Source: a virus (taxonomy: Duplodnaviria; Caudoviricetes). Taken from it: DNA of 64,000 nucleotides. The position numbers were made by a program, and so were the translations under genes. Each line of letters opens with the position of its first letter. Position 1 is the first letter of the stretch. A model generated the notes under the pieces. That model worked only from the letters and a program-made list of their open reading frames with translations, ran no database searches and was not told the origin of the DNA. The stretch spans positions 79,526-143,525 of the IMG/VR virus record IMGVR_UViG_3300037400_006508; one strand, given 5' to 3'. Below are positions 2,489 to 63,918 of this stretch, piece after piece.

Positions 2489-2992
2489 ATGTACGCGAAA
2501 TACATCTCTGAAACAACGATCAATACGACGATCCCGAAATCTGGGCATGACGCGCAGGGACGCCTCGTGACCGGAGATCTGACGAACAGGCCGGACGTCC
2601 TGGCCCTGCTCAACTACTTTCCGGTGGTTGAGCAGGAGATGCCGTCCGAACCGATCGAAGGGTACCACTACGAGAAGCGGTACGCCCCTCCGGACAGCAA
2701 CGACGGGATCGTACAATTCTGGGTTTCCGTCGAGGATCCTCCGCCCCCTCCGGAGCCGGTCAAGGTGTATTCCAAGCTCAAGATCCTGATGGCTGCTGAC
2801 CAGGCCGGGATCATAGATCCGCTTATGGACCTTATCGAGTCGGACAGGAAGCTAAAGTACATCTGGGACGCGTCGAACACGATCGAGGACAACGCCCTTC
2901 TTTCCGCATACATCCCGAACATCGCCCAGGCGCTTGCAAAAACGGAGCAGGAGGTGTATGCTTTTCTCGACAACTACTGCATTGCAGACTAG
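2489..2992 (+). CDS. hypothetical protein, possible tail-fibre assembly chaperone
   Basis: RBS AGGAG upstream. Small protein after fibre-like genes. Pro-rich hinge (DPPPPPEP), YSKLKI motif, one DSND. Confidence 0.55.
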   Translation: MYAKYISETTINTTIPKSGHDAQGRLVTGDLTNRPDVLALLNYFPVVEQEMPSEPIEGYHYEKRYAPPDSNDGIVQFWVSVEDPPPPPEPVKVYSKLKILMAADQAGIIDPLMDLIESDRKLKYIWDASNTIEDNALLSAYIPNIAQALAKTEQEVYAFLDNYCIAD

Positions 2993-3001
2993 GAGGACGA
3001 C

Positions 3002-3451
3002 ATGAAGAAGTGGTGGAAGAAGATCTGGAAGAAGATCAAGGAATGGCTCGAGGGCGACGAGAAGTTCGACTACCAGGGCCTGGACTGGTGCTACGGCGGC
3101 GAGAGGGCAAAGGGGGCCGTGGAGGACGTGTCCCAGAACGGGTTCAAGCTGAACTCGGTCTCGGCCGACGAGAAGGGCGTCAGGTTCTCCGGCGAGGGCA
3201 GGATGTGGGGGTACACCCACGACCATGCCGACGCACGCAACTGCATATTCTTCCTCGGCGACGACGGCGTCTGGCACGGAGGATTCTGGGAATGGGGCTC
3301 CGTGGACAGGACCTACCGAGATTTCAACAACATCTACTCCGGGTACAAGGGGTGGAAGGTGCAGCCGTTCCTCAAGTCGAAGAGATGGCTGTTCTTCGTC
3401 ATGACAAGGTCCGGGGATAAGAGGACCAACCTGATGTTCATCGACAGGTAG
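3002..3451 (+). CDS. hypothetical Trp-rich protein with cationic amphipathic N-terminus
   Basis: RBS AGGAGG. Starts MKKWWKKIWKKIKEWL. Confidence 0.7.
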   Translation: MKKWWKKIWKKIKEWLEGDEKFDYQGLDWCYGGERAKGAVEDVSQNGFKLNSVSADEKGVRFSGEGRMWGYTHDHADARNCIFFLGDDGVWHGGFWEWGSVDRTYRDFNNIYSGYKGWKVQPFLKSKRWLFFVMTRSGDKRTNLMFIDR

Positions 3452-3460
3452 AAGTCCGGC

Positions 3461-4270
3461 ATGCCGGAAGGCGAAATCAGGGTAGCCTACACGATAGACG
3501 TGCGGGGGGCCGGCGCTCAGCAGTTCTGCGACCAGCTCCTCGTCTCCGTGTATTCTCTTCTCAAGACGAAATCGCCGGACGACCGTATACGCGTGTCCGT
3601 GTTCTACGGGAGCATCCCATACGGGCTGGAGCAACGTGTGTCGTCGTTGGGAAGGGACGGATTCAAGGTCGAGTTCAACAGAATAGACGCAAATCTGCTT
3701 GCGAGGCTTGACAGATGTTCCGGAAGGGATCCTACCAAGGGAATACGGACTTTTTCCGGGATAACTTTCGTAAGGTTCTGCCTTCCGGACCTGATTCCGG
3801 ACGCGGACAGGGTCGTATACCTGGATTGCGACACACTGGCCCGTTTTCCCATAAAGGATCTTTGGGACGTCGAATTCGACGCTGGCTCCCTTATAGCGGC
3901 CACGCCGGGCGTCGTACCGGAGTACGGATTCAATTCCGGTACGATAGTTCTCGACCTGGCGGGGATGAGAAGGGAGGGGTGCGTGGAGCCGTTTCTCGAA
4001 TATGCCGAAAAAGAGGCGAAGCTGTTCATGCTTCCCGACCAGACCGCCATGAATAAGTTCTTCGGCGGCAGGATAACGGAGATTGACGGATCGTGGGTGT
4101 TCACTCCGTCCGTCGGAGGAAACAGCCCGTATCTAAGGTCTGCGAAGATGTTTCACTTCTATAACGGGCATAAACCGTACCGTATAACCAGGGAAGATAC
4201 CGGAAGGGTTCTTGTCATATGGAACAATCTTCTTTCCGAGGCGGAAAAGGAGGTGTCCGATGCCGGATAG
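3461..4270 (+). CDS. glycosyltransferase family 8 (GT-A fold)
   Basis: GT8 motifs: FVRFCLPDLIPDADRVVYLDCDTL (DxD), FNSG, PDQTAMN, HFYNGHKPY. Confidence 0.9.
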   Translation: MPEGEIRVAYTIDVRGAGAQQFCDQLLVSVYSLLKTKSPDDRIRVSVFYGSIPYGLEQRVSSLGRDGFKVEFNRIDANLLARLDRCSGRDPTKGIRTFSGITFVRFCLPDLIPDADRVVYLDCDTLARFPIKDLWDVEFDAGSLIAATPGVVPEYGFNSGTIVLDLAGMRREGCVEPFLEYAEKEAKLFMLPDQTAMNKFFGGRITEIDGSWVFTPSVGGNSPYLRSAKMFHFYNGHKPYRITREDTGRVLVIWNNLLSEAEKEVSDAG

Positions 4271-5894
4271 CGAAAATGACGGCGCACCGAGCCCGATAGT
4301 GGATACGAGAACGGTAGATTATAACTGCGAATGCTGCAAATGCGGTCTTCTTAGCGTCGTTATCGAGTTTGATAATGGTTGCAGGTGCCTGGGGATATAC
4401 AGCAAGGAGGATTGCAGCGGTGATTGGTGGGAGAAAGAATGTCATTACGGCCCTTCCCATTTCGAAGTGGAGGTATCTTTGTTGTATTGGGATTCGGAGC
4501 CGCCGCCCGGAACGGATCCCGTATCGGCAAGAGAGGTTGTTTTCTTCGAGTTTGACGCGGCGCATACCAGGTCCTCAGGTTATCTTTCATACTCGTCCCA
4601 CGAGCAAATACCCGTTTGTTCGCCCGGCAAGTACAAAGTGGAGCTCCGTATATATGGAGACGGCATGAGCGTTACCTTCGAGAAGGTTATTACCCTGTCG
4701 TCGATATACGGCCAGACCGTGGTTTTGAAGTATAGAAACATGGAATACCACGGGTGCTGCAATCCAACGCTGACTATATCGTTGTACGATTTGTGCAGAT
4801 CGAGAAAAACTCCCGATGGGGATGAAATTGCCGACGATCTGAAGGATTTTGACGACGTAGTAGTTACCATGGAGGACGGTACGCAGTATACGCTCACTTA
4901 CGATCCGGATGATTCATACACCTATTACTACAAGGATTTCGATCTGCCGTGCGGAAGCAGCTCCGGTGGGAGCGTTGAAAGCGTAACTATAGGCGGCGAG
5001 GAGGTTTCTCTTTATTGGGGGGATTTCTATTTTAACCCGTCCCAGCCGTACAATGCGTCTGAGTGGCATGAGGATTGCAATTGGTATTTGATGCTCCGCT
5101 TGCCGCCCAGATACTATTTGTATCTCAGCATGGAGGGAAACGAATGCACTTCCGTGGGCGATACCATGACTTTGTATGTAAAGGATTGCGATTATGGTTC
5201 GTGGCACATGACCGGGGTAACGCTTTCAAAGGTGCCCGGAAGTTCTAGCTTCGTATATTTCGACAGAGTTCCGCTTGAACATTTTAATCTTACCAGTTGC
5301 GACTGCAGGAGTCTGGATGTCTATCTTGATCAAGGGGGGAACACACTGGTTGGCCATGCCGATTTCCACGATGAGTACAATGGTGTTAGAAGCGTGTTCG
5401 TTTTGACTGGATCGGTCGACAATATAAAGCTCAGGAGAATAGTTGTAACCGCAAACGAGAAGGAGGATCATATAACCGAGCCGTACACCATAACCGTTCA
5501 CGTCAGTTACTACGACGGATACTCCACGCAGTATTTCACATGTACGCTTTCAAATCAGGGAGGAAGCGGAGGAAGCGGAAGTTCGGGGTCGTCCGGAAGT
5601 GGAAGCGGAGGCATAGGCCCCGGCGCAGGATGCAGCACCGTGGTGTGCATGGAGACGTATTCGTGCGGTGTAGATTACATAGACGCCCCGCCCTTCATAT
5701 ACGCCGATTCAAATACAAGTTTTCCGTCGGACGATCTTGTGCAGATAGATATCGGTATCTATTACACCGGTCCATATTATCGTGGATTGCAAGAGCCCGA
5801 ACCCGTGGTTAAGCTGTTGGAAGCACCGAAAAGCGATGTGGACGATGTATTCAGCGAAGGCGTCGTTGAAGAGTCAGAGAAAGGCGAAAAATGA
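4260..5894 (+). CDS. Cys/Tyr-rich acidic beta-sandwich protein, probable virion surface/fibre protein
   Basis: ATG at 4260 with GGAGG RBS, overlapping the GT8 end. CECCKC, GCC and CDC clusters. Gly/Ser linker near 5560-5625. Confidence 0.6.
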   Translation: MPDSENDGAPSPIVDTRTVDYNCECCKCGLLSVVIEFDNGCRCLGIYSKEDCSGDWWEKECHYGPSHFEVEVSLLYWDSEPPPGTDPVSAREVVFFEFDAAHTRSSGYLSYSSHEQIPVCSPGKYKVELRIYGDGMSVTFEKVITLSSIYGQTVVLKYRNMEYHGCCNPTLTISLYDLCRSRKTPDGDEIADDLKDFDDVVVTMEDGTQYTLTYDPDDSYTYYYKDFDLPCGSSSGGSVESVTIGGEEVSLYWGDFYFNPSQPYNASEWHEDCNWYLMLRLPPRYYLYLSMEGNECTSVGDTMTLYVKDCDYGSWHMTGVTLSKVPGSSSFVYFDRVPLEHFNLTSCDCRSLDVYLDQGGNTLVGHADFHDEYNGVRSVFVLTGSVDNIKLRRIVVTANEKEDHITEPYTITVHVSYYDGYSTQYFTCTLSNQGGSGGSGSSGSSGSGSGGIGPGAGCSTVVCMETYSCGVDYIDAPPFIYADSNTSFPSDDLVQIDIGIYYTGPYYRGLQEPEPVVKLLEAPKSDVDDVFSEGVVEESEKGEK

Positions 5895-6319
5895 GTTGCA
5901 ACTGCGATAAGGACAAGTCTGCGAAAGTGGATTCGCGGTCATCCGGCTACAGCCAGCCAATGGCTTGCGGCAAGTGCCTTGCCAAGCATTTGTCGAAGGC
6001 TTCGGTCGAGTACTCGGAGGTGTTGGAGGACGCATCAAGGTACACCGAGCTGTCATTTTGCATAGGCGATCTGGCGTGTGCGGAGGACCATGCTTCCGCT
6101 CTCGGCTGGAGTGACATGAAGGACAAGATAAGATCCGCCAGGGAAAGCGTATATTCGTTCGAGAAGTCAACGTACGACGATCTGGTGTCGCTTGCGTCCG
6201 AGGCGGTAGGCCGTATTGTGTCTAAGGACAAGGATAACATGAAGTTTGCGATGGAAATGGCCAAGGCTCGGGCGGCCGCCCGTGCGTCGGAGGACAGCAA
6301 CGATGTCGGCGCACCCTGA
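5891..6319 (+). CDS. hypothetical protein, possible metal-binding (CxxC..H / C..EDH)
   Basis: ATGA overlap with upstream stop. MSCNC, CGKCLAKH, CAEDH. Ends with DSND. Confidence 0.65.
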   Translation: MSCNCDKDKSAKVDSRSSGYSQPMACGKCLAKHLSKASVEYSEVLEDASRYTELSFCIGDLACAEDHASALGWSDMKDKIRSARESVYSFEKSTYDDLVSLASEAVGRIVSKDKDNMKFAMEMAKARAAARASEDSNDVGAP

Positions 6320-29724: not shown

Positions 29725-30128
29725 AAATCAACGTGAAGCAGAACAGGATCAACTCGGTCCTGAGCGTGATCGTGTCCACGTCGGATTGGTCGAGGCACGA
29801 GCTGGATTCCATCGTAAGGTTCGGGGAGCCGACGATACAGATCGGCGGAAAGTTCGTCAAGCTGTGCACAAGATGCCTCGTACCGAGGTGCCCGTTCGAT
29901 GACAGCAACGATCTTCCTGAGAACTGCGAATTCTACGTCGCCGAGGCCGAGAAGAAGGTACGGAGCGACTTCCCGATCATGGTGGAGTTCGGCCCGGACG
30001 ATTTCGACGAGCCGGAACTCTGCGCCAGGTCGTGGACAGACGAGATAGTAGGCAGGATCGTAGACGCCGTCAGGGAGCTTCGGCAGACTTCAGCCGACAT
30101 AGTAAGGGAAGAGACGTACGAGGTCTAG
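29721..30128 (+). CDS. hypothetical protein (DSND-containing)
   Basis: ATG at 29721 overlaps the upstream stop (ATGA). CTRC..C..C cluster around DDSNDL. Confidence 0.65.
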   Translation: MKINVKQNRINSVLSVIVSTSDWSRHELDSIVRFGEPTIQIGGKFVKLCTRCLVPRCPFDDSNDLPENCEFYVAEAEKKVRSDFPIMVEFGPDDFDEPELCARSWTDEIVGRIVDAVRELRQTSADIVREETYEV

Positions 30129-36017: not shown

Positions 36018-36025
36018 CCAGGAAA

Positions 36026-36089: not shown

Positions 36090-36090
36090 C

Positions 36091-38380: not shown

Positions 38381-41031
38381 TGGCTAAATACATTGTCCCA
38401 CAAGTTCTGATCAATCAGCTGATCTCCGAGGTCAGCATGAACACGATCAAGAACCAGAATGTTCTGGTCATAGGACCGAACTACGAGTTGTTCCGATTCA
38501 CCGAAGCTGACGAAAAGCAGAAGTGCTACATCGGAGACTACACAGACCCGACCGGTCAGGAAGGCGGCGGAACCGTCGTCGACGAGGGCGAGCGCGAGTA
38601 CTCGGTAGAGAACGGAAACGCGTACGCCAACGTCAAGCTGAAGGTCGACAACCTCGCCGGACGCGTGGTCATCCCGTACCCGGGACAGGCTTCCACGACG
38701 ATTCCGGACGCCAACTACACGAAGGTGTTCGCGGACGAGGTGATCATCAAGCTCGCGTCTCTTGGAAGCTTCTACTTCCTGGACGACAAGGAGACCGCCG
38801 GACTCGACGCACGCCTGCGCTTCCCGTTCGCCCTTGCCGGCGACAAGCGCGGTTTTGCGACGAAGTACGTCTGCCGCTGCTACGTGGAGCCAACGGACGG
38901 AAAGTGCGTCGACGGTTGCGGAAAGGACCTTCAGCCCTACTTCGCCATCAGCTGGGCAGACGACTACGTCGATCCGACTGGCGCGCTGAAGCCCGGCCAG
39001 ATGAAGAATTTCCCGCGCAGCATCAATCCTGGCGACGCGATCCGCATTCCGTACGTCGGAACCGACGGTGCGGCCCATGTCTACAAGTCCACGATCGTCG
39101 AGGTGTTCGAATCCGTCAAGGAGAGCGGAATCTTCGACTCGGTGCAGCTTGCCGACACCCTTCCGGATGACTTCCCGAAGGACACTGTCACGATTCCGGC
39201 CGACCCGACCGACAAGTACTCGATCGCCTACGAGACCGAGCACTTCACGGCAGTCGAGGACAATACGATCCACCCGGTGTACCCGTGGGATCCGGGCGAG
39301 TGCGACAGCAACGATCTGGACAGCAACGACGACGGTACCGACATCCTCGGCGCCGTGCAGCTCTGCGCCCAGTTCTCCGACGTGGAGATCTCGCGCAAGA
39401 CCGGCGTTCGCCATGTCTGGAACTGGGACACCTACGCCGACACGGATCCAGGCAACGACGAGGACATCTTCGGCGTTGTCATCTCCGGCAACCTCAAGGC
39501 CCGCTACTCCAACTGGGATTCTTCGGATCCAGTCACGGGTCTCTCGCCGGAGTACCGCGTCCTGTCCGCACGTCTGTTCGTTCAGCACCGAGACCTTATC
39601 GTCTCGTCTGCCGGCGACATCACGTCGATCGCGTCCCACACGCTCGTCGAGCAGACGCTCGGCAAGCTGCATCCTGACAATCCGCTGGCGTTCGGCGTCT
39701 ACATGGCGGCTCTCAACTCCGGCGACAGGATCGTCTACTACTGCGGCATCCCGACCGACGATCTTTCCGGCTACAACGTGGCCCTCGGAAAGGCGACGAT
39801 GACGGACGACGTCTACTTCATCGTTCCTCTGTCCGGAGACGAGATGGTCGTTGATTCCGTCAAGGCCCACGTCGAGGAGATGTCAACCGCCGAGAACAAG
39901 CTCTGGCGCGTCGGATTCGTCTCGCAGACGCCGCCGAAGATCGACATGATCTACGACCAGACCAACAACCCGAGCAAGGAGGACTTCTACGTGCAGTTCA
40001 AGCTCGCGAAGGGTCGCGACTGGTACACGGACGGCGCCAACCTCATCCAGTTCATGAAGGACGAGGACATCGACGACGACAGCATCAACGTGGATGTAAA
40101 GTGCCTCAAGGACGTGAAGGTGGGAGACGTCGTCAAGATCTGGCTGGACAACAGCGACGACGACTGGGACGAAACCCCGCACTACACGGAGCGCTACGTC
40201 AAGAAGATCGTGTCCAACAGCGTGCTCCAGCTGGCCAAGCCGGTCTACCTGTGCGCTGGCGAAGAGACGATCGACGACGGAAACGAGAGCAACGACTACT
40301 GCTACCCGGACATGATCCCGAACGGCAAGACCCGCAACCACTTCAAGGTCGAGGTCTACCGCAAGCTGACGGCAACGCAGCAGGTACAGTACATCGCGGA
40401 CATGTCCAGCTCCCTGGCCACACGCCGCATGTACAACGTGTTCCCGTCCGTTGCGTCGACCGACGGAATCGTCTTCACCGGCGAGTTCCTCGCGGCGGCG
40501 GCAGCCGGACTTGCTTCGTCCGTTCTGCCCCAGCAGCCTCTGACGAACGTCGAGCTCAACGGCGTCGGCGACCTGCCCATCGTGTACCAGACGTACACGA
40601 GGGAGCAGCTCAACACGATCGCCGCCGGCGGTACGTTCATCATCATGCAGGAACGCCCGGGGTCGCAGGTCTACGTACGTCACCAGATTTCGACCGACTA
40701 CACGAGCAACAATCTGCTCAAGGCCGAGCTCTCGATCACGAAGAACCTTGACTCCATCTCTTACTACTTCGCGGAGCTGTTCGCCCCGATGATCGGTAAG
40801 TACAACATCACGCCGGAGCTCATCGGAGTTCTTCGCGTGAAGCTGGAGCAGGGCCTCAGGATGCTCGAGACCTCCACCGCGGCAGGCCTTTACGGCCCGC
40901 AGGTTCTGGCCGAAGGCACGGAGATCCTGGAGCTGCACCAGGACGAGGTACACAGGGACCATGTCTACGCAAAGGTCCACCTGAACCTGCCTGTGCCGTT
41001 CAACTACTTCGACCTCGATCTTGAAATCTAA
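38380..41031 (+). CDS. contractile tail sheath protein
   Basis: 883 aa. N-terminal YIVPQVLINQ..VLVIGP; C-terminal sheath domain (AAAAAGL..PQQPLTN, VRHQIST, ELSITKNLD, PVPFNYFDL). Strong codon bias. Confidence 0.88.
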   Translation: MAKYIVPQVLINQLISEVSMNTIKNQNVLVIGPNYELFRFTEADEKQKCYIGDYTDPTGQEGGGTVVDEGEREYSVENGNAYANVKLKVDNLAGRVVIPYPGQASTTIPDANYTKVFADEVIIKLASLGSFYFLDDKETAGLDARLRFPFALAGDKRGFATKYVCRCYVEPTDGKCVDGCGKDLQPYFAISWADDYVDPTGALKPGQMKNFPRSINPGDAIRIPYVGTDGAAHVYKSTIVEVFESVKESGIFDSVQLADTLPDDFPKDTVTIPADPTDKYSIAYETEHFTAVEDNTIHPVYPWDPGECDSNDLDSNDDGTDILGAVQLCAQFSDVEISRKTGVRHVWNWDTYADTDPGNDEDIFGVVISGNLKARYSNWDSSDPVTGLSPEYRVLSARLFVQHRDLIVSSAGDITSIASHTLVEQTLGKLHPDNPLAFGVYMAALNSGDRIVYYCGIPTDDLSGYNVALGKATMTDDVYFIVPLSGDEMVVDSVKAHVEEMSTAENKLWRVGFVSQTPPKIDMIYDQTNNPSKEDFYVQFKLAKGRDWYTDGANLIQFMKDEDIDDDSINVDVKCLKDVKVGDVVKIWLDNSDDDWDETPHYTERYVKKIVSNSVLQLAKPVYLCAGEETIDDGNESNDYCYPDMIPNGKTRNHFKVEVYRKLTATQQVQYIADMSSSLATRRMYNVFPSVASTDGIVFTGEFLAAAAAGLASSVLPQQPLTNVELNGVGDLPIVYQTYTREQLNTIAAGGTFIIMQERPGSQVYVRHQISTDYTSNNLLKAELSITKNLDSISYYFAELFAPMIGKYNITPELIGVLRVKLEQGLRMLETSTAAGLYGPQVLAEGTEILELHQDEVHRDHVYAKVHLNLPVPFNYFDLDLEI

Positions 41032-52803: not shown

Positions 52804-53643
52804 ATGGTAGAAGACGATTACGACTCAGACGAATCCGGCTTCGAGGAGGTGCTTTCCGGCATATCCGACGTTGCGGCGTCCGAAAGGAAGGACGAGTCGC
52901 CCTTTCTAAGGGACGATCCGGGGCCGCGTACCAGGAATCTAAGCTCGAACGAGCAGGCATACGCGGCATGGTTGAAGGACAAGACGCCGGGCAACCTGTC
53001 AAAAGTGATAGATTCGCTTTCTCCGACAATCAACTCCGAGATTACGCGTTACTCCGGGTCAAAGCCCCTTTTGCGGTCAAAGGCGAAGGTTCTTGCCATC
53101 AAGGCGGTGAAGACGTTCAATCCCATGTCCGGGGCGAGGCTCAGCTCCTGGGTTGTCACGAATTTGCAGCCGCTTGCCAGGTATAGCATAAAACAGAGGG
53201 ATATCAAGGTTCCTGAAGTTGCGGCGAGGCAGGCGGCCGAGGTATCCAGGGTATCGGAATATCTGAAGGACGAGCTTGGAAGAAGTCCGACTGACGACGA
53301 GATAGCTGACGAGATAGGAATATCGGCAAAGCGTGTAGCGAAGGTCAGGTCCATGGCCGTGGCCACGGTTTCGTCCAGTGCGTTCGACGAAGCCGAATCC
53401 GAGGACTCCAGCTCAGCACCTGGCGTAGAGACACCGAGCCAATTGCCGTTCGCGCAGGAAGCGGTGTACCAGGGGTTGTCGGACACGGACAGGCTCATAT
53501 TCGACAGTTTAACAGGATCTCATGGTAAACCCATGGTGCCGTCAAAAAGGGTTGCCGCAATGCTTGGCGTGTCGCCGTCCGCTGTAAGCCAGAGGGCAAA
53601 CCTTATAGCCAGGCAGATAACAGAGGTGCTGGAAAATGTCTAA
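52804..53643 (+). CDS. RNA polymerase sigma factor, sigma70 family (group-3/FliA-SigF-like)
   Basis: Region 2: AVKTFNPMSGARLSSWV. Region 3: ELGRSPTDDEIADEIG. Region 4 HTH: VAAMLGVSPSAVSQR. Confidence 0.88.
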   Translation: MVEDDYDSDESGFEEVLSGISDVAASERKDESPFLRDDPGPRTRNLSSNEQAYAAWLKDKTPGNLSKVIDSLSPTINSEITRYSGSKPLLRSKAKVLAIKAVKTFNPMSGARLSSWVVTNLQPLARYSIKQRDIKVPEVAARQAAEVSRVSEYLKDELGRSPTDDEIADEIGISAKRVAKVRSMAVATVSSSAFDEAESEDSSSAPGVETPSQLPFAQEAVYQGLSDTDRLIFDSLTGSHGKPMVPSKRVAAMLGVSPSAVSQRANLIARQITEVLENV

Positions 53644-54010: not shown

Positions 54011-54516
54011 AGATATACACGCCGCGCCAGACAACAAAGAGCTATGCCGACAGGCAGCTCGACATAGAAGCGCTGAAGCATGTCGACAAGATGCTTCGGA
54101 AGCAGCGCGTGTTTCCCGATGTACACAGTACACCGAGGATCGTATCCGGAATAGAAAAGGCTGTTCAGCGGTACGCCAAGCTTTTTCTCACCGAGATAGG
54201 GTCCATAAAGGCGGCTCCGCAGATAGGCAGCACTTTGCTAAGCCGTGTGTTGAACGGAATGGTTGCCAATGAGGCGGAACTCGGGTTTCTGTACGCGATT
54301 GCGAACAGCAACGCCCTAAAGGCCATTCGTGCGGACGACTCTGAGACGGGATTGTACGGCAAGATACCCCCGGACGAGAGGATCGTGTCGACGAGGCTTG
54401 TTGACATAAGCATAGATTACAAGACATACACAGCTAAAGTTCATGTGTTCATAACGACAGCCGCAGGGGATTCGTTCACCTTCATAATACCGGTCTCTGC
54501 CGGAATAACGCAATGA
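54007..54516 (+). CDS. baseplate wedge/sheath initiator (gp25/gpW-like)
   Basis: ATG at 54007. SGIEKAVQR..LFLTEIGS..P.IGS, DERI. Precedes baseplate J. Confidence 0.7.
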   Translation: MKIYTPRQTTKSYADRQLDIEALKHVDKMLRKQRVFPDVHSTPRIVSGIEKAVQRYAKLFLTEIGSIKAAPQIGSTLLSRVLNGMVANEAELGFLYAIANSNALKAIRADDSETGLYGKIPPDERIVSTRLVDISIDYKTYTAKVHVFITTAAGDSFTFIIPVSAGITQ

Positions 54517-56138
54517 GAGAGATAACCCTCGATTCCGTAACGGAAGAACAGATACAGTCCGAGGCGCAGATCCTGGTCAACATGATCAGGACGAAGTACC
54601 CCAAGCTAGACTTGAGAAGGGGAACGGTTCTTCGCGACCTGTTGATAGACGCGGATTCCGCGGTGGGATGCATGTTCAATATGCAGGCGGACGAGCAGAG
54701 GAACAGTTCGTCTCTGCTGGAGCTTCTTCGCAGGTCGGAGGCCGGAGAAGAGGTGGACGCGGACGACGTAAACGCCGTCATGTCTAATTTCAATATGGAA
54801 TCTGTTACCGGAACAAGGGCGAAAGGGTATGTCAGGGTTTTCGTGTCAAGCGATTCCGGTACGGTAGTAGGCAAGGGCGTGCAGTTCCATACGGCGAATG
54901 ACATTTATTTCACGGTAACCACCTCCGTGGTAGCGTCGATGAATCCTTCGTCGGACGAGGTACAGAAGTATCAAGGTGTTTCCAACTTTTGGTTTCTGGT
55001 ACCGGTGGAAGCCGTTCTTGACGGGTCAAACGGAAACTTGGAGCAGGGTACTGCGCTCGAGCCGGACTCGGCCATATCGGATTTCGTGTCGGCGTCGGCG
55101 TACAAGACTTTTTCCGGAGGTTCCGATCTCGAGTCTCTGAACAGCACGGTATCCAGAATAAAGGAATCGCTGTCCGTCAGGTCTCTTACGACGGAGACCG
55201 CTATGGAGTCGCAACTCAGGGACAGGTTTGACAATACGGAGCATCCTATAGTTGCCGTCTCATTGTGCGGGTACGGCAACGAGGCCCAGCACAGGGACAA
55301 GCACAATCTGTTTGGAGTAGGCGTCGGCGGTAGAGTTGACGCGTATGTACGCAATTTTACCGATCTTCCGGTATCGCAGGCCATAACTAAGCCAGGCGTC
55401 TTGAACGACGACGGGTCCTACTCTATTTCAATCTCTCATTCCGAGGTTCCGGGGATCATTTCCGTTTATTCCGTTACGGATCCGGATTCCGATGCTTTGT
55501 CGTCTTATTCATATAAGACTGAATACAGCGGCGACGTGTCGGGGGTATGGCACGACTTCGATGTCAGCAAGAACTTTTCAGAGATAGCGAATACGGTATG
55601 GCGCGACCTTACCATAAGGGTCGAGGGGGTTCCTCCTTTGGAGGGCAGCAATGATGAGGAAGACAGGGAATTCAGGGTCGAGGTAATCGCGCTACCGTTC
55701 GCAAATGAATTGCAGGATTTCGTCGACGACGGGCTCGTCATGAATGTGGGGTCTGACTTCGTAGTTCGTGGCCCTATGGTTGTTAATTTGTCAGTTAACG
55801 CGGTTGTACGGCATTCGTTTTCCGTAGCATTCGATGTCGACAAGGCCGTAACGGCCATTTGCAGCTATGTAAACACGTCCGGCTTCGTAGGAAGGATAAC
55901 AAGATCCGAGATCGCATCCATTCTACGGGGGTTGGGCGCGACATCCGTAGATCTGTTCGACGAGAACGCGATGCTGTACGGATATGCGTACGATGCGTTC
56001 GGCAGGAAGCATGAGATGAGCGGAGACGCGATCGATCTAGATTTGATGAAGGACGTACCTGGGATGCTCACCAAGGATACGGCCGTATTCGTACTTGAGC
56101 CAAGAAACGTGCAAATAAAGAAAATAGCGGTGTCGTAG
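54513..56138 (+). CDS. baseplate J-like wedge protein
   Basis: GTVLRDLL, GTRAKGYV, VEAVLDGSNGN, FSGGSDLES, GGRVDAYV. Confidence 0.85.
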   Translation: MREITLDSVTEEQIQSEAQILVNMIRTKYPKLDLRRGTVLRDLLIDADSAVGCMFNMQADEQRNSSSLLELLRRSEAGEEVDADDVNAVMSNFNMESVTGTRAKGYVRVFVSSDSGTVVGKGVQFHTANDIYFTVTTSVVASMNPSSDEVQKYQGVSNFWFLVPVEAVLDGSNGNLEQGTALEPDSAISDFVSASAYKTFSGGSDLESLNSTVSRIKESLSVRSLTTETAMESQLRDRFDNTEHPIVAVSLCGYGNEAQHRDKHNLFGVGVGGRVDAYVRNFTDLPVSQAITKPGVLNDDGSYSISISHSEVPGIISVYSVTDPDSDALSSYSYKTEYSGDVSGVWHDFDVSKNFSEIANTVWRDLTIRVEGVPPLEGSNDEEDREFRVEVIALPFANELQDFVDDGLVMNVGSDFVVRGPMVVNLSVNAVVRHSFSVAFDVDKAVTAICSYVNTSGFVGRITRSEIASILRGLGATSVDLFDENAMLYGYAYDAFGRKHEMSGDAIDLDLMKDVPGMLTKDTAVFVLEPRNVQIKKIAVS

Positions 56139-56141
56139 GCT

Positions 56142-57884
56142 ATGTCAAAGGAAACATCGGTAAAATTGAATAGGACGGCTATCGCGGCCGAGTCAAAATC
56201 GTCGTTTCCGGCCGACCTGACACCGGAGCAGGCAACCAACGCCGATACGCTGTTTTCGTGGCTTGGATCGTTTTGGGACCAGATATACGAGGATCCAGAG
56301 TTCATACAGTATATCCAGAAGGCCAGGGCTCTTCGCATATCGCAGCTGTACCTTGATCTTTTGGAGAACCTGAAGCTGCATGACAGGGAGAATGCACCCG
56401 TTTTCCACAGGGAGAGATGGCACCCTATTATTCTGAGGAGGAGCCAGATGGGAACCGGTTCGCAGGCCATGTTCCGGCTTACGAACGACGGTACGTTGAA
56501 TCTCGGGGAGCAGAAAAATCCGGTGTACCCATCCGGAACGGTTGTTACACTTGGCGGCGTTAACGTCGATCTGGAGGGGATGGTGGTATATCCGTTGTCC
56601 GGCGAGTCTTCCGTCCTAAAGTCGGTTCTAACCTGTATTTCCAACAACATAGTTGACGCAACCGTGGTACTGTCGGCCGGCAGGGATTTTGCCGTTCTTG
56701 ACGGTGCTATCGCCATATCCAAGGAGTTCGATCCGTTTACGGGCGACCATGCCGATGAATTCTCAAAGTTCGAGATAGTACGCGATAATCCTGACGACAA
56801 CGACGTCGAGACGGTGTTGTGGGCGTGTGACTCCATGTTCGACAGGAATTTCCTGTACGACAATCTCGGATACGCCATATCGCTGCCTACGGAGTCGAAG
56901 GAGGTGTACAAGCGGGTTATAAACGCGGCATGGAACATAGTGGCGTCAGGCGCAACTCCGTTGCTAGTGCGTTCCCTTATGGCGTGCATATGCGGTGTAC
57001 CTACCGTTAAGGAGGAGGGAGAAATCGTTGAAAGAATAGTGGTTAACGACGATTCCAACGATTTCACGAAGCAAGTCATTACAAACAAGAACGTATATTC
57101 GTTTTCAGGGTATGCCGAACTAAGGAAGGATGTGTTTGTAGGCGCCAAATTGCACAGGTTCGATACGCTCGATCTCGCCATCAGGGTGTATCCGTTCACC
57201 AGGGAGCTTGACAGGGTGCCGCTATACAGCGAGTTCGTGTCAAGCATGGATGAGCTAATGGAGGACGTTCCGGCCGTAGACATGCCCGATGCGTACTTTA
57301 GAATGGATCTTGATGCCGGCTTTTCGTTGACATGGAACGAGGTTCCGGTCTATTGTGATGGTTTCGACCGTAACGGGAATCCGAAGCTAAGGTTCGATCT
57401 GGAGGGATCGAAGGAGGATAACGACATCTTTTGGTCCGACGTGCAGAAGGCGTACGAGGAAACCGGACAGAACATGATGACTTGTCTTGGTACCGTACAA
57501 GATGGTATCATCGTCGAGGCCGGCAAGATTGTGGGCAGCGTATCGCCTTTGAGGTTTTTCTTCGAGAATCTTGTGGGGGCCAACACCCTCGTCATAACGG
57601 TGAGGACGGACACACTCGCGGACGACGCCCCGCTGTACGATCCGAAATTCTTTGGCGTCTTGAGGGAGAGCATTCCATCGTACATAAGGCTATACGTGAT
57701 CGAGCACGGGTCCGTTGGTGACGAGACGGTGGATCTCGCCGAGGTCTATGACGACGCCGACCTGAACATACAGGAGGAAGAGGAGGACGAGTTCGACTAT
57801 GGGGTTCTTCCGAGGGGGCCTAAGTACCACGATCACGTAGACACGAAATGGATAGCAGCTTGCAGGGACGAATACGATGATTGA
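56142..57884 (+). CDS. baseplate wedge protein (gpI/gp7-like, putative)
   Basis: Follows J. LGSFW, NLGYAI..YKRVINAAW..GATP..L..ICGVP, IPSYI. Confidence 0.6.
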   Translation: MSKETSVKLNRTAIAAESKSSFPADLTPEQATNADTLFSWLGSFWDQIYEDPEFIQYIQKARALRISQLYLDLLENLKLHDRENAPVFHRERWHPIILRRSQMGTGSQAMFRLTNDGTLNLGEQKNPVYPSGTVVTLGGVNVDLEGMVVYPLSGESSVLKSVLTCISNNIVDATVVLSAGRDFAVLDGAIAISKEFDPFTGDHADEFSKFEIVRDNPDDNDVETVLWACDSMFDRNFLYDNLGYAISLPTESKEVYKRVINAAWNIVASGATPLLVRSLMACICGVPTVKEEGEIVERIVVNDDSNDFTKQVITNKNVYSFSGYAELRKDVFVGAKLHRFDTLDLAIRVYPFTRELDRVPLYSEFVSSMDELMEDVPAVDMPDAYFRMDLDAGFSLTWNEVPVYCDGFDRNGNPKLRFDLEGSKEDNDIFWSDVQKAYEETGQNMMTCLGTVQDGIIVEAGKIVGSVSPLRFFFENLVGANTLVITVRTDTLADDAPLYDPKFFGVLRESIPSYIRLYVIEHGSVGDETVDLAEVYDDADLNIQEEEEDEFDYGVLPRGPKYHDHVDTKWIAACRDEYDD

Positions 57885-58488
57885 AGACAGGGTAACGGCC
57901 AGAGGGGCAATCGACGCGAGATGGGTTTCGGAGGAGGAATCCATCCCGTTTTTCAAGAATCACAACGCTCTTTCGTATACGGCGGCGGATGTCATGGCTT
58001 CCGCATACGGCGGAGACATAGGGCGGATACCGAAATACGTCGGTTTCCTGTACGGGGACGAGCAGCAGCCGCCTCTTCTTCCGGAAGTGATAGACAGATA
58101 CATGACATGGGATTCCTTGAAGGCTCTGACCGAGGACATAGAGGGAAACCTCCTGGTCGTCAGGTTTTCCAGGAAGCCCACGATAACAACTTCGTTCGAG
58201 GACAGCAACGACCTTGGGCTTTACGACGGAAATATAGTCGAGTTCCATGCCGTCACGCGGTCCGGCGAAGACGGCGTATACGCAAACGACACGTCCGGCG
58301 AGTCGAAGTTCGCCGGCAAGTTCGAGTCCGGGAAATGGCTATACAGGGCAGTTCTCCTGGGTGATCCGAAGGACTGCGAACCCGGTTACACCGTACTTGG
58401 CATGGCGTCGTTGAAAAAGAACGGCGCCTATAGGGCCAAGCCTTCCGAGTACGAGCTTGCATTGGACTGGCGCATAGTCTTTAACTGA
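57877..58488 (+). CDS. baseplate/fibre-attachment protein (putative)
   Basis: Position. Ends KPSEYELALDWRIVF. Confidence 0.55.
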   Translation: MIEDRVTARGAIDARWVSEEESIPFFKNHNALSYTAADVMASAYGGDIGRIPKYVGFLYGDEQQPPLLPEVIDRYMTWDSLKALTEDIEGNLLVVRFSRKPTITTSFEDSNDLGLYDGNIVEFHAVTRSGEDGVYANDTSGESKFAGKFESGKWLYRAVLLGDPKDCEPGYTVLGMASLKKNGAYRAKPSEYELALDWRIVFN

Positions 58489-58499: not shown

Positions 58500-61490
58500 A
58501 TGGCTACATGGCCCACCGTAAAAGGAGTCGAAAACGGCCAGAACGTGGATGAAGCCACCTTCAACAGGCCGATCGCGGAGCTTGCCGAGCGCACCGACTA
58601 TCTTAAGAGGAGGCTTGACGCCCTGACCGGGCTCGATTCGGTTCGGTCGGAGATACGGCTGTCCCCGGACGAGACGTTCCATGTCGGCGATATAGTATGC
58701 GTGAACCCGGAGACGAAGCTGTATACAAAGGCCATCGCCTCCATGAGTCTCTACGACGCGTACACGGCATCAGTCAAGGCGTATGCGGTCGGAATACTCG
58801 TACGAGTCGACGGGGCGGCCGGCACCGTGTGCCTTTATGGAAAGGTGGAGCTTGATAGCCTTAATGTGAGTATGCCGGATCTCATGGAGGCCGGCGAGAC
58901 GTTCAGGAACGGCGAGTACTACCTGTCGTCGACAACGGCCGGAAAGATAACCAGGCATCCAAAGGGGCCAAGGATACTTGTAGGGTTCTTCTGCAAGAAG
59001 GAGGCCGTGTCCGGCGACCATTCAGGCGATTTTGCTCTGATAAATCCGCAGCACATGGATATCGAGGCGCACTCGCATCGTACGTACGTTCTGACGCCTC
59101 GTCCGGCCGGCGAGGTGTATGCGGAGTACGAGGACGAGTCGAACGGGATAATATCCGGATACAGGGTAATAGGGTTCAGGCCGGATGACGGCACCGAGGT
59201 AGCCCCCAGGATGACGATCTGCGGGGATTGGACCACAAGCCTGTATGCGTCGTACACGGTGACGCTGGACGACGGTGTCGGAAATACGCCGACATCGTGG
59301 CCTTGCCGTCTTACCTGGGTATGCGAGGACGATTCGGACAGAGGTACCGGAACGGTCGACGTCAAGTTCTTCGGCGATGAAGTCGCGGTCGGAACCCTGG
59401 GCCTTGCCGTCAGATTCGACCCATACCCGTCAGGAAGCCTCGACAGACCGTTTCCGGAAGACTACGATGGCGGAAGGGTATGGACCGCAAACAGGGATCT
59501 TGGAAGAGGCTGGGCAGCGGCTTCGGTAAACAGGGTCGAGTCGTTTGACGGCTCGTATGTAAGGCTTACGGGAGTGTCTCCGGAAAAGACGATAACGCAT
59601 GCGTATTTCTGCATACCGTACCACATATACGATCTCACGTCGATCTTCCAGGATGGTATAACCGCCGGAATGACGTTGTCGCTCGGCGGCGAGGACTTCG
59701 TGTTCGTAAACGAGGAATACGAGTATTCTGGCACGGCAAAGGTCGTATACATAGCAGACGACGAGAACATCTTCGATACGCTTGTGGCTCTGGCCGAGAA
59801 ATCCGATATGGCCGTTATGTACAACGTGCAGGAGAAGCAGGTGCTGTTCGGCGATATAGAGGGAGACGAAGTCGTCACGGTGAACGGGCTGACGGCGCAG
59901 CCAAGATTCACAGAGCAGGGTCTTGGACTCCTGTTTGACATGCAATCGAAGGAGTCGCTTGCCGTACCAATATCGATAGGAAGGGAATTTTACTCCGTAA
60001 TAGCTCCGGCCGCGTGGACCACTTTCGACGTGGAGCACGGGTTCAGCCTGTCGTTCATGGGCGACACCCCGCCGTCCGGATCGTACTTCCAGTTTGACGC
60101 GAACAACGGGTGTCCTGGTTCCGTGTACAGATATGCCGTGGAGTTCGACAACGACCTGAAGAAGCACTTCCCGCCAGTTCCTGCGAAGTCCGGATCGCTC
60201 ATGCTGAACGGCGTGGAGCTGGAGCCGTACGAGCAGTACGGGGAGGAGTCGGTATTCGGCATTGGCGACGATTCCATATACTGGAGAGACCCATCGTACG
60301 GGCGTGCTCCGTGGCCTACGGAATGCTCCGATAGGAATTCCACGGTAGACGTGGAGGACGAATACAGGATACTGTTCCATTTTGTGTCGGAGTTCCATTC
60401 CGAGACGGGGCCCGTTACATCGTTGAGGCCCGCGGAGGGATCGCCCATAAAGGTGTATAGATGCGGAACCGACGAGGATGCGACGGTAGGCGATCTGTCT
60501 CTTGACGTAAAGCTCGAGTTCGATGCGTCCGACAGCGGGGAGTCCGGATACAAGGTCGTCAAGCGCACCCGCGGGAACAGGCTTCTTTTGGGGCCTGTGG
60601 TTGAAAGGATCATAGCCGGTCCGGGAATCTCAATTTCAAACGAGACGGGCCAGGGGACGGTAACCATATCCGCGGACGGTACGGAGTACAACGGTGATTT
60701 CGAGACGGTTGCGCTGGAGAACGCGAAGCTGGAGTCCGTCGGGATGTTCCCGTACATACGTTTCCTCAAGTGGAGCGACTCCGGTTCCAACATACCGACC
60801 GGTTTTGTCGCCAAATTCCATCTTCCGGCGACAGCGCACGACGCCGTGTACCGAGTGAAGTTCTACGCAACCGTTTTCGGCGAGGAGTCGTTCTCGAACC
60901 AGACGTCTCCGATGACGGCCGGAGTGGCGATGGACTACAACATTCTTCCGGACTTCAGCATGGACGGATCCGATCCGACGACGGCCAATCTCAAGACCGG
61001 GCTCATAAAGCCGAACAAAGAGGCCGTCCTCGATATACCGTTCGGTGTCCAGACCGGGCAGAACTCGTACGACTACTCCGCATTCGATCCTATTCTGATA
61101 CACAACGATTCGACGATCGCGGACGAGGCAGGGGTCAGCCAGCAGGTATACGACGCGTCTTTCCCGAACAAGACGGATTGCTCCGAGTACGTCGCGGCCC
61201 ATTCTATAACATGGGCGTTCGGCATACGTCCGGGCTATACCGTGGCCATCCGCTTCTCCAGGACAGATCCTAGCACGGGAGTTCCGTACGAGTATCCGAT
61301 AGGGTTCCTGAATCTGCGCTGGAGGGTGGAGGAAGTCGCCACCGTCGACGCCGTAAGGGAGGGATACCTGGATGATCTTGTCACGAGGACGGTGGTGAAC
61401 CTCCGGAAGGCCGCCAAGAGCTCTGGCCCCATGACAAACAGCTACGAAGTGGTCGACGTGATACAGAAGATCCTAAATGCCCTTAAGTGA
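58500..61490 (+). CDS. tail fibre/baseplate-attached protein
   Basis: N-terminal FNRPIAELAERTDYLKRRL (fibre-attachment motif). YYLSSTTAGKIT; IIAGPGISI..GTVTISA. Confidence 0.7.
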   Translation: MATWPTVKGVENGQNVDEATFNRPIAELAERTDYLKRRLDALTGLDSVRSEIRLSPDETFHVGDIVCVNPETKLYTKAIASMSLYDAYTASVKAYAVGILVRVDGAAGTVCLYGKVELDSLNVSMPDLMEAGETFRNGEYYLSSTTAGKITRHPKGPRILVGFFCKKEAVSGDHSGDFALINPQHMDIEAHSHRTYVLTPRPAGEVYAEYEDESNGIISGYRVIGFRPDDGTEVAPRMTICGDWTTSLYASYTVTLDDGVGNTPTSWPCRLTWVCEDDSDRGTGTVDVKFFGDEVAVGTLGLAVRFDPYPSGSLDRPFPEDYDGGRVWTANRDLGRGWAAASVNRVESFDGSYVRLTGVSPEKTITHAYFCIPYHIYDLTSIFQDGITAGMTLSLGGEDFVFVNEEYEYSGTAKVVYIADDENIFDTLVALAEKSDMAVMYNVQEKQVLFGDIEGDEVVTVNGLTAQPRFTEQGLGLLFDMQSKESLAVPISIGREFYSVIAPAAWTTFDVEHGFSLSFMGDTPPSGSYFQFDANNGCPGSVYRYAVEFDNDLKKHFPPVPAKSGSLMLNGVELEPYEQYGEESVFGIGDDSIYWRDPSYGRAPWPTECSDRNSTVDVEDEYRILFHFVSEFHSETGPVTSLRPAEGSPIKVYRCGTDEDATVGDLSLDVKLEFDASDSGESGYKVVKRTRGNRLLLGPVVERIIAGPGISISNETGQGTVTISADGTEYNGDFETVALENAKLESVGMFPYIRFLKWSDSGSNIPTGFVAKFHLPATAHDAVYRVKFYATVFGEESFSNQTSPMTAGVAMDYNILPDFSMDGSDPTTANLKTGLIKPNKEAVLDIPFGVQTGQNSYDYSAFDPILIHNDSTIADEAGVSQQVYDASFPNKTDCSEYVAAHSITWAFGIRPGYTVAIRFSRTDPSTGVPYEYPIGFLNLRWRVEEVATVDAVREGYLDDLVTRTVVNLRKAAKSSGPMTNSYEVVDVIQKILNALK

Positions 61491-62413
61491 TGTCGACGAT
61501 AAATCCAGGCTGGTTAAACCAGAATTCCCAAAGAACATACCCGTTCGCGGAGGACTCTAGACTGAGGCCGACGCTGGACGGCGTTCCGTCGGAGGACTAC
61601 AGGTTTCCGCTGGGCGGAGTGCTGGATCTCATGCTCGAGACGTCGAAGCCGGACGACGTCAGATCCGTGTACATGAGCACGTTCACGCTTGCGGGCGGCG
61701 TCGCGACGATCGCGTTCTCCGATGTTGCGTCACGGGAGCTTCTGGCTTCTGCGTCGTGTACGAGGACCGACGACACCTATACGCCTGTCAATTTCACCGG
61801 ATTCGGAAAACACGACGATATACGTGGTACCGTCGTATTCGGCGAATTCTCGAAGGTGTACGACAAGCTTCCGGACGGCATATATTCGTTCGAGCCGGAG
61901 GAGACGACGTTCGAGGCAAGGTGCGTCAGGCCGTCGGTTCCGTGCGTCAGCGGCGTGTTTGTCACAAAGGCCTACGGTGACATGGAGTCGTCCCGTCTTA
62001 GAGGGGATGTGGCGTTGATCGCCGGAAGAAACGTGCATTTGGACTATGACGAAGCCGACAACGCCATCATAATCAGCGCCGACTCCAGGTACGACTACAA
62101 CGACAAATGCGATTGCGGAGACGCGGACAGGAATCCGGTGGTCACCATAAACGGAATTAGCGCCGATGATGTGGTAATAGAGGGCGACGACTGTGTGAAC
62201 GTAGAGGTTTCCGACGGCAGGATAAAGATCTCAGACACCTGCTCGAAACCGTGCTGCGGGTGCGCGGAGCTTACGTTTTTGAATGAGAAGTCCAACCTTC
62301 TTACAACAGCCCTGGGGAAGCTTGAGAACTATTCCAACAACCTGGAGAACAGGCTGAACGAGTTTGTGATGAACGCCCTTCTTTCGGAGCGTTCATCCAT
62401 GAAGTACGTGTAG
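61490..62413 (+). CDS. Cys-knot fibre-associated protein, paralogue family member 1
   Basis: WLNQNSQRTYPF N-terminus. TINGI, EGDDC, CSKPCCGC, then coiled coil. Confidence 0.65.
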   Translation: MSTINPGWLNQNSQRTYPFAEDSRLRPTLDGVPSEDYRFPLGGVLDLMLETSKPDDVRSVYMSTFTLAGGVATIAFSDVASRELLASASCTRTDDTYTPVNFTGFGKHDDIRGTVVFGEFSKVYDKLPDGIYSFEPEETTFEARCVRPSVPCVSGVFVTKAYGDMESSRLRGDVALIAGRNVHLDYDEADNAIIISADSRYDYNDKCDCGDADRNPVVTINGISADDVVIEGDDCVNVEVSDGRIKISDTCSKPCCGCAELTFLNEKSNLLTTALGKLENYSNNLENRLNEFVMNALLSERSSMKYV

Positions 62414-62421
62414 GTGCTGCC

Positions 62422-63918
62422 GTGAGGAACGCGGGATACCTTACATCTAACGCAAACACGATGTGGCCGTTCGACGAGGACGACCCGAGATCGCTGTTGC
62501 AGGTGTCAAGGATGTTCGCCGACGGTTTCGCGACAGTATACCCGGACGAGGATATAGACGAAGTCGTGGTACGGGATATACGGGTATCTTCAAACGAGGT
62601 GTCGTTCGCCGTGTATAAAGTAAAGGGAGGGGAATCGGTATCGTCCAACAGCATTGCCGCACGGATAGACAGGGAAAGGCCGTACGCTACGGCCGTTCCG
62701 TCCGAGGCCGGCTGGAGCGCATTCGTCCTCGACGTGTTCCAGGTTCTCCAGAATGACGGTATGTCGTTTCCCGGACCGTTCAGGATGTCGGACTCGTCCT
62801 TGTACGCAAGGGCCAACAGGGTTCTGTCGTTCACGCTTGTCAACGGCGAGGAGAGAAGCGGAAAAATTTCCGGAAACGTCAAGTTCAAGGCCGGTACGAA
62901 CATGTACGTCGGAAGCGATATACTGCAGGCGTCGTACATCATGCCGATAACGGAGGACAAGAAGGGCGTTGTGATTTCCGCCATTCCCGGGGCCGGCGCC
63001 GGAAGGGTTCCGTGCGAGATTCCGGTCGACTGCGGCGAAGGGTCCGGCAACATAAAACCGGACGAGATGGGAGATGTGGTGTTCGAGGGGGACGACTGCC
63101 ACCAGATCGTTCCTGTAGACGAGCCATGGACGGACGAATCTGGTATAAAGCACGTGTCCGTCAAGATCATAGGCAAGTGCACCGCATGCTGCCAGTGCGA
63201 CGACTATGTGGACATAGGAAACAGGCTTGCCGGGGAGAGCGAGAGGCTGTCCGATGTGTATTCCATGATAAAGAGGGATTCAAGCGTCTACAACGCGTAC
63301 GCCAGGAAGTTCAACCAGAGCGTGTACCGCGTGTCGGCCGATGAGCTGCTCGTCCATTGCGTGGCGATGAGCCAGAACAGGAATGTCGGCTCTGCGCATT
63401 CTGTCAATATGGGAAGTAGCGGAATATCGGGGTCGATAGACAGGGCGAATGCGAGCCTTACGATAAAGAATACGTCCATTTGCGACGTATCCTGCACAGT
63501 ATATGCGCAGATGGACCCGCAACGCATAGTGATGGCAACCATCATACGGCCTACCAGATCGGACGATACGAGCACGAGCGTCGTATCCGAGACCATAGAT
63601 TGCTCGAACATGTGGTACGACGACCCGTCGAACGACTGCTGCGACCCGTCGAACGACTGCTATGACCCGTTGAATCCAGAAAATTGCGACCTGTACGACG
63701 CAGGCCCCGCCTTTTTCAAGTCCGGCGTGGATGTTCCGTCCGGGTCCTCCGTCAATATAATACTGTACGGTTCCAAGGCGAACACCACAACCCCGAACCG
63801 GGAGTGCAAGGTCAACGGATTCGTTACTTTTTCGTGGATGGAACGCGATCCGTACGGGTCGAACGATACGGTCCCCAGGCAGCTTGTAAGGAAGTTTTCA
63901 GCGGAGCAGAGGACATGA
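62422..63918 (+). CDS. Cys-knot fibre-associated protein, paralogue family member 2
   Basis: YLTSNANTMWPF N-terminus. EGDDC, CTACCQC, coiled coil, DPSNDC repeats. Confidence 0.65.
   Translation: MRNAGYLTSNANTMWPFDEDDPRSLLQVSRMFADGFATVYPDEDIDEVVVRDIRVSSNEVSFAVYKVKGGESVSSNSIAARIDRERPYATAVPSEAGWSAFVLDVFQVLQNDGMSFPGPFRMSDSSLYARANRVLSFTLVNGEERSGKISGNVKFKAGTNMYVGSDILQASYIMPITEDKKGVVISAIPGAGAGRVPCEIPVDCGEGSGNIKPDEMGDVVFEGDDCHQIVPVDEPWTDESGIKHVSVKIIGKCTACCQCDDYVDIGNRLAGESERLSDVYSMIKRDSSVYNAYARKFNQSVYRVSADELLVHCVAMSQNRNVGSAHSVNMGSSGISGSIDRANASLTIKNTSICDVSCTVYAQMDPQRIVMATIIRPTRSDDTSTSVVSETIDCSNMWYDDPSNDCCDPSNDCYDPLNPENCDLYDAGPAFFKSGVDVPSGSSVNIILYGSKANTTTPNRECKVNGFVTFSWMERDPYGSNDTVPRQLVRKFSAEQRT
63622..63670 (+). 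repeat. 21-nt tandem repeat encoding DPSNDC(C/Y)
   Basis: gacccgtcgaacgactgctgc / gacccgtcgaacgactgctat / gacccg. Confidence 0.85.

Follow-up and report, generated by a model that had tools for sequence, protein, structure and literature searches.

Proteins encoded by the final 64 kb of a 143.5-kb phage contig (IMG/VR record IMGVR_UViG_3300037400_006508; these 64,000 nucleotides are hereafter called the window) carry a recurrent tetrapeptide, Asp-Ser-Asn-Asp (DSND). Its enrichment is real and lineage-specific, and its replication in related phages is the decisive evidence. DSND is the shortest version of a repeat that varies in length, (SND)n, best written [DE]-S-[NST]-D. In sheath, baseplate and fibre-like proteins, it occupies low-confidence, indel-prone, Cys-flanked acidic loops as well as C-terminal tails. 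The carriers are a small group of large myophages from rumen and gut metagenomes. We favor the view that DSND is a slippage-amplified, selected acidic surface tag, with a role in cation binding or charge tuning ranked first; taken jointly with the description above, we give this view a probability of about 0.4.

DSND is enriched in the window and at new loci in related phages

The window genes, all on the + strand and taken as real, comprise RNA-polymerase-like giants, a head module and a contractile-tail module; most of the other window proteins lack a family match. A preliminary description of this DNA, made from its letters alone, had listed 12 S-N-D sites in the window, and every one of them was found in frame. 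Across the window proteins, which sum to approximately 21,000 residues, SND thus occurs 12 times against 5.08 expected (P = 0.006) and ranks 64th among tripeptides. Since four of the sites belong to two tandem DNA duplications, this amounts to 10 independent loci for SND (P = 0.035) and 6 for DSND (P = 3e-6). Counted without collapsing, DSND occurs seven times against an expectation of 0.38 (P = 1.6e-7), in agreement with the initial rough estimate of below one, and represents the most extreme window tetrapeptide outside Ala/Pro low-complexity tracts. A first-order Markov model gave the same DSND expectation as independent residues, and residue order matters: the 12 copies of SND compare with one or two each of SDN, NSD, NDS and DNS, with DSN (11 copies) overlapping DSND. 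The proposed concentration in tail and baseplate proteins holds for SND, which was found nine times against 2.6 expected in the tail module and three times against 2.6 in the rest. DSND, in turn, exceeds expectation in the tail module (4 versus 0.21) but also outside it (3 versus 0.18).

On the window alone, the case is suggestive and borderline, not compelling. The SND excess by itself is unremarkable, and the broad (D/E/G/P)-SND class of the preliminary description adds little. Whole-protein shuffles produced some tetrapeptide as extreme as DSND in 1% of cases when seven copies were counted and in 15% when the sheath tandem was counted once (six loci). Furthermore, the other 79 kb of the genome, in which no DSND was found, served as a control half and contained the tetrapeptide CPKC at P = 2.6e-6. 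These figures, together with the rank of SND, are what could be said for chance or amino-acid composition as the sole source of the pattern.

For comparison, we used five whole related phage genomes (G001–G005; the genome that holds the window is G000). The G001 sheath is 82% identical to the window sheath, and G001, G002 and G005 are about equally close to this phage (46–66% identity for G002 versus 50–69% for the other two in the same proteins), while G003 and G004 are distant, with baseplate proteins only 27–35% identical. No prophage relatives were found in prokaryote genomes. G001 encodes 26 SND against 10.4 expected and 10 DSND against 0.69, the latter spread over seven proteins and including at least five loci not in common with this phage; G005 encodes 29 SND against 7.7 and 15 DSND, at eight loci, against 0.51. 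G002 showed no enrichment (two DSND against 0.93 expected), and G003 and G004 contained no DSND at all and likewise no enrichment. Only three or four sites are homologous between this phage and its relatives, the rest being mostly new loci. Restricting the count to new, array-collapsed loci, with the motif specified in advance, still yielded P values of approximately 7e-4 for G001 and 2e-4 for G005. Specificity was sharp: across G000, G001 and G005, respectively, DTND was found 0, 0 and 0 times, DSNE 0, 1 and 0 times, DSQD 0, 0 and 1 times, DNSD 1, 1 and 0 times and DAND 0, 0 and 0 times, whereas ESND, DGND, DSTD and DSSD were mildly raised in these three motif-rich genomes. As the motif recurs at new loci even under the most conservative counts, is sharply specific and is not explained by dipeptide frequencies, we consider its enrichment real and lineage-specific, and rejected chance as a highly improbable explanation.

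DSND is the minimal unit of a variable acidic loop

All sites described in the following lie on the + strand. The 203-residue beta-sandwich tail protein encoded at 57877-58488 carries DSND (58201..58212) in a variable loop. An alignment of 21 homologues (A3) placed this loop, which varies in length, between two conserved strands, with [DE]-S-[NST]-[DE] or tandem SND/DSS arrays in most of the 21 members. Expanded forms include DSNDSNDSNDG, SNDSNDSNGSND and DSSDSSDSSES, often preceded by a Cys, and at orthologous positions the Asn of the motif is replaced by Thr or Ser.

The tail sheath (ORF, open reading frame, 38380-41031; PHROG 279) carries the tandem DSND-L-DSND (39304..39330), which is conserved in G001 and lies within an insertion absent from distant sheath homologues. 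Its second copy (39319) runs into Asp-Gly, giving DSNDDG through 39336, a loop resembling Dx[DN]x[DN]G; DSNDDG is conserved in three close homologues and retained in P0002 and P0003. A second Cys-flanked sheath insertion holds ESND (40285..40296), which reads TGND in G001 and is modeled with a predicted local distance difference test (pLDDT) score of approximately 60. AlphaFold (AF2) models of the sheath and the 203-residue protein have mean pLDDT values of 82 and 78, respectively, and the score falls below 50 exactly at sheath residues 304–315 and at residues 108–112 of the 203-residue protein. The alignments and these predicted low-confidence loops bear out the expectation that the sites would map to exposed insertions absent from, or different in, homologues. 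A search for recurrence within the sheath family was discarded as support: SND occurs there 45 times against 9.3 expected and forms about 10 column clusters against 0–6 in permutations, but other Asp-rich tripeptides reach 13–14, and most of the signal is inheritance within D/S/N-rich loops. Separately, both sheath SND loops are bracketed by paired Cys residues, and a four-Cys cluster (CxC...C...C; window 38872-38919, sheath residues 165–180) is conserved in the G001 sheath; these Cys residues may form a metal site or disulfides in the sheath outer domain.

Length variation was also apparent in the ORF at 62422-63918. A 33-residue Asp/Cys/Pro-rich insertion there, absent from the G001 homologue, contains two PSND (63625..63657), and this pair, at 63625 and 63646, is indeed the tandem DNA duplication it had been taken for, with a 21-nt unit. 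The G005 homologue (C1 8889-10586, L079) contains Cys-D(SND)7-Cys, a perfect array with an 18-nt period and synonymous differences, while the G001 homologue has nothing at the insertion point and six SND overall, five of them in the C-terminal region. More generally, tandem duplications in the window measure 15 and 21 nt, relatives carry arrays of two to seven units at the same loops, and several ORFs terminate in the motif or within a few residues of it. In G000 and G001, the residues within six positions of SND show a 2.65-fold enrichment of Asp and a fourfold depletion of Lys (0.24-fold). A Cys lies at most six residues away at 14 of the 41 SND sites in these two genomes, compared with 7.0 at random positions (P = 0.007).

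Selection appears to act on the peptide

The preliminary description had argued from the use of different Ser codons that the signal lies at the protein level. As applied to the window, this argument fails: AGC encodes the Ser at 8 of the 12 sites against 16.6% of all Ser codons, six DSND sites contain an identical 11-mer, GACAGCAACGA (0.09 expected; one strand only), and the DSND at 57051 is the sole one in the window with a TCC codon. AGC is likewise used at 13 of the 26 SND sites in G001. Codon context was considered as a cause and accounts for part of the bias only, AGC reaching 19–32% in comparable contexts versus 67% in SND. A DNA-level signal, in which GACAGCAACGA served binding, recombination or regulation and was translated only incidentally, would fit the exact repeat and the codon bias. 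However, the SND coding pattern has zero copies in sense frames 1 or 2 of any genome, all copies keeping to one reading frame; the count of GACAGCAACGA is not unique, as seven different 11-mers attain at least six copies in G000; and the Ser codons of the motif are at background frequencies in G005 and G002. We therefore rejected this explanation, which we consider as improbable as chance.

The conclusion drawn from the codons nevertheless holds, via those of the relatives and the lack of out-of-frame copies. G001 and G005 use all Ser codons for the motif, adjacent units of the tandem SNDSND in G001 and L011 differ in their Ser codons, and the Ser of the orthologous loop in the protein at 57877-58488 is encoded by AGC in this phage, by TCC in G001 and by TCN in G002 and G005. 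Because the motif is never out of frame and the Ser codon family switches at an orthologous loop, these sequence comparisons point to selection that keeps the peptide, not the DNA. The AGC bias, in turn, probably marks young, related copies in the G000/G001 lineage.

Further motif sites and genome context

Within the tail module, the 580-residue baseplate-module protein at 56142-57884 carries DSND at an indel (57051..57062; absent in G001), and the baseplate-J-like protein at 54513-56138 carries GSND (55644..55655), which G001 does not share and which probably reflects background. A further GSND (63856..63867) lies near the C-terminus of the ORF at 62422-63918, in a region that cannot be aligned with G001. 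The near variant ESNG was confirmed at 59136 (59136..59147) in a 996-residue fibre-like protein (58500-61490); approximately 12–17 residues downstream of its position, homologues carry DSND (G001) and DSNDSND (G005).

Outside this module, DSND occurs at 2693..2704 in a 167-residue ORF (2489-2992; context PPD-SND-GIV) without a Pfam or PHROG match or a homologue in G001, and at 6293..6304, five residues before the C-terminus of a Cys-rich 142-residue protein (ORF 5891-6319). The G001 homologue of the latter likewise terminates in DSNDESNDIS*, although the tails themselves cannot be aligned. DSND at 29901..29912 occupies a Cys-flanked loop of ORF 29634-30128 and reads ESND in G001; homologues in L011 and L028 have one to three SND units between Cys residues. 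The near variant DESNT does end an ORF (35043-36017), as proposed, but the assignment of that protein as the major capsid protein found no Pfam or PHROG match. Among proteins of at least 600 residues, SND was found only in the sheath, in line with the earlier remark that the RNA polymerase chains and the tape measure lack it: the 1,460-residue RNA polymerase fusion and the 1,591-residue ORF 45239-50014 have none. The latter, earlier taken as the tape measure, has no family match.

Several observations concern the genome itself. The long + strand ORFs 35012-36256 and 35043-36017 overlap in a stretch of 61% GC, and neither has a Pfam or PHROG match. A 279-residue ORF in the tail module (52804-53643), an odd location, matches phrog_351, annotated as RNA polymerase sigma factor (E = 1.4e-7). 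The contig stops just past ORF 62422-63918, whereas in G001 two more Cys-rich, SND-bearing proteins follow the homologue, so the tail-fibre module may be cut off here (window 63684-63998, contig end). The G001 collagen-like protein contains 58 GPTG units. In the whole genome G000, the 10-mers GTTCGACAAG and AGAAGGCCGAG occur 14 and 8 times, respectively, on the + strand only, and may be frequent peptide words (F-D-K and K-K-A-E) with biased codons.

No support for a tie between the motif and GT8 glycosyltransferases

The preliminary description had tied the motif to a glycosyltransferase family 8 (GT8) gene at 3461-4270. The + strand ORF there (269 residues) does encode a GT8 enzyme: it matches PF01501 with 81 bits (cut-off 24.3) over profile positions 8–248 of 253, carries D122-x-D124, invariant across five phage GT8 domains, and has the C-terminal HxxGxKP element as HFYNGHKPY. 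A BspA-type leucine-rich-repeat protein (PF13306, 102 bits) is encoded just upstream of this region, at window 34-1251. In total, G000 has four GT8-domain genes (269, 473, 612 and 775 residues), all with DxD. The three outside the window, at G000:C1 59426-61264 (612 residues; L036:3427-5265), 61329-63656 (775 residues; L036:5330-7657) and 74886-76307 (473 residues; L003:802-2223), are fused to large unknown regions and have a tail-fibre-repeat protein and a caspase-domain gene as neighbors.

The tie itself was not supported by comparison. G000, G001, G002 and G005 encode GT8-like domains and G003 and G004 do not, so that motif and enzyme seem to co-occur, but G003 and G004 are distant and their lack of both is therefore confounded with phylogeny. 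Moreover, G002 has a good GT8 (67.9 bits) without DSND enrichment. The GT8 set differs between close relatives: no single orthologue group is common to G000, G001 and G005, with G001 containing only a 22%-identical relative of the 612-residue protein and G005 only weak relatives of the 775-residue one, and the GT8 at 3461-4270 has no orthologue in any of the five genomes. The GT8 homologues found were metagenome proteins only, which gave no clue to host or function. Five G000 genes match just G001 and G005, one of them an HNH endonuclease and the rest without a Pfam match, and among these genes common only to the motif-rich genomes we found no recognizable enzyme; genes common to these genomes and G002 gave no enzymatic match either. 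The literature on DNA glycosylation contained no link to GT8, and that on DSND or SNDSND nothing relevant.

Known sequons do not describe the sites. A PglB-type sequon (D/E-x-N-x-S/T) is not present at the single acidic sites, as DSND and ESND in the window are followed by G, V, L, L, D, F, L and Y; Thr at +2 is seen in GSNDT alone, there without the acidic −2 residue, and S/T at +2 is otherwise confined to tandem arrays. Since orthologues have Thr or Ser in place of the Asn and single sites lack S/T at +2, the N-glycosylation of Asn proposed at the outset is unlikely. The general O-glycosylation motif of Bacteroidetes is D-(S/T)-(A/I/L/V/M/T); the third residue here is Asn at all 12 sites.

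Discussion

Copies of the motif appear and vary in number via duplication or slippage of 9- to 21-nt units, with the peptide rather than the DNA being retained. The function of the tag would rest on Ser and on the carboxylate and amide side chains: a multivalent acidic loop, often held by neighboring Cys residues, could chelate divalent cations (Ca2+/Mg2+) and tune the charge of the tail exterior. We infer that this is the most likely role, ahead of largely neutral low complexity and, further behind, of an acceptor site for a modifying enzyme.

Several points weigh against cation binding or charge tuning by a selected tag. The calcium-loop pattern Dx[DN]x[DN]G is present at only 1 of the 12 sites (39319, DSNDDG), and low pLDDT combined with fast site turnover is usually not what a structural metal site looks like. 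Turnover is indeed fast: in G001, SND is kept at 4 of the 12 window sites (one as ESND), lost at 7 and unaligned at 1 (63856). A modification acceptor would account no less well for the strict Ser (never Thr), the C-terminal tails and the tandem arrays. Arrays of (SND)3 or longer were found in 50 IMG/VR contigs, mostly AT-rich giant-virus bins, and because (SND)n is thus generic low complexity in unrelated AT-rich viral contigs, its origin here may be largely neutral. Finally, gene calling in the relatives was mechanical, taking the longest frames that did not overlap, and probably let in a few antisense artefacts, although tail-module sites in the relatives were checked by homology.

A neutral origin is the closest competitor, and we consider it possible, if somewhat less probable than the selected tag. 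Slippage-prone 9-nt units would expand and shrink in tolerant hypervariable loops, single DSND being collapsed, functionless remnants. Tandem duplications, length polymorphism, site gain and loss between close relatives (G001 has also gained new motif sites elsewhere), the wide occurrence of (SND)3+ arrays and the youth suggested by the AGC bias and shared 11-mer in G000/G001 all agree with such a scenario. However, the SND unit is spread over at least eight separate loci per genome, in contrast to the GPTG, NTFG and SGS repeats, which are confined to one or two proteins; the mutational neighbors DTND and DSNE are not enriched; and the peptide survives both a switch of Ser codon family and synonymous differences within arrays. 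We regard as rather unlikely the proposal that DSND or (SND)n is an acceptor sequon, O-linked at Ser or N-linked at Asn, through which phage GT8 enzymes coat the tail with glycans. Four GT8-domain genes with DxD, the presence of such domains in the motif-rich genomes and their absence from the motif-free G003 and G004 speak in its favor, as do exposed, flexible, Ser-strict sites, sometimes in arrays or C-terminal tails, that resemble known acceptor regions. Apart from the phylogenetic confounding, the missing orthologue groups, the GT8 of G002 and the evidence against N-linkage given above, the GT8 genes have leucine-rich-repeat and fibre-repeat genes as neighbors, and their target could be host polysaccharide. 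To our knowledge, no GT8 except glycogenin, which glucosylates itself on Tyr, glycosylates a protein residue directly. The wider possibility that the motif is the acceptor tag of some protein-modifying enzyme, GT8-like and phage-encoded or from the host, that covers the tail surface with glycan or some other coat appears to us equally doubtful. A proteolytic role was rejected as the least probable of all: DSND could be the DxxD cleavage site of a phage caspase-domain (C14) peptidase, whose gene (G000:C1 71143-72003, L036:15144-16004) is found in G000, G001, G002 and G005 but in neither G003 nor G004, a phyletic pattern like that of GT8. The enzyme, however, has the metacaspase/orthocaspase signatures YSGHGG and FDCCHSG (DxCHSG type) and GSU0716 as its best match of solved structure, and G002 has the gene without motif enrichment. 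Metacaspase-type enzymes (clan CD) cleave after Arg or Lys, not Asp, so that C14 would not be a cognate Asp-specific protease. A protease for basic P1 residues might bear on the K-x-A motif of the head proteins.

Short linear motifs gained repeatedly in exposed loops usually mark recognition, be it modification, docking or ion binding, and several known systems resemble the acidic loops described here. Calcium loops (EF-hand, dockerin, Excalibur, thrombospondin type 3 and the DxNDN of cadherins) are likewise rich in Asp and Asn and often Cys-flanked, with DSNDDG in the sheath as the nearest counterpart; unlike them, the loops here are variable and predicted with low confidence, only the one site fits, and no window protein matched a calcium-binding Pfam family. 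Dentin phosphophoryn, (Asp-Ser-Ser)n, is a eukaryotic mineral-binding protein that requires phosphorylation; by analogy, it too is an acidic Ser tripeptide repeat, reminiscent of the DSSDSSDSSES found at the motif loop in one homologue of the 203-residue protein. For glycosylation of acidic Ser repeats, staphylococcal Clf/Sdr adhesins offer a precedent, as their Ser-Asp repeats are modified by SdgA/SdgB (PMC3794999, PMC8561734). Both repeats are acidic, Ser-containing, length-variable and of low complexity on an exposed surface, and in the adhesins Ser is the functional residue; here, in contrast, the unit is the tripeptide SND with an Asn, one to seven copies take the place of hundreds, and the loops that hold the repeats belong to phage tail proteins. 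The analysis turned up no Sdg-type (GT4) enzyme, though no search was aimed at GT4 genes. Mycobacteriophages have been described as glycosylating their virions with phage glycosyltransferases (Freeman et al. 2023, as cited in PMC11256854). Phage-encoded glycosyltransferases are common to both cases as far as that citation goes, but phage group and proteins differ, and the modified structural proteins are theirs, those here being candidates only.

A four-residue tag on the tail surface would be directly testable, since mass spectrometry and metal-binding assays could be applied to two small recombinant proteins. If modified, the motif would take virion modification beyond mycobacteriophages and actinobacteriophages and bring with it a sequon defined by four residues. 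If instead it served cation binding or were simply tolerated, it would show coding microsatellites shaping the hypervariable surface of phage tail proteins.

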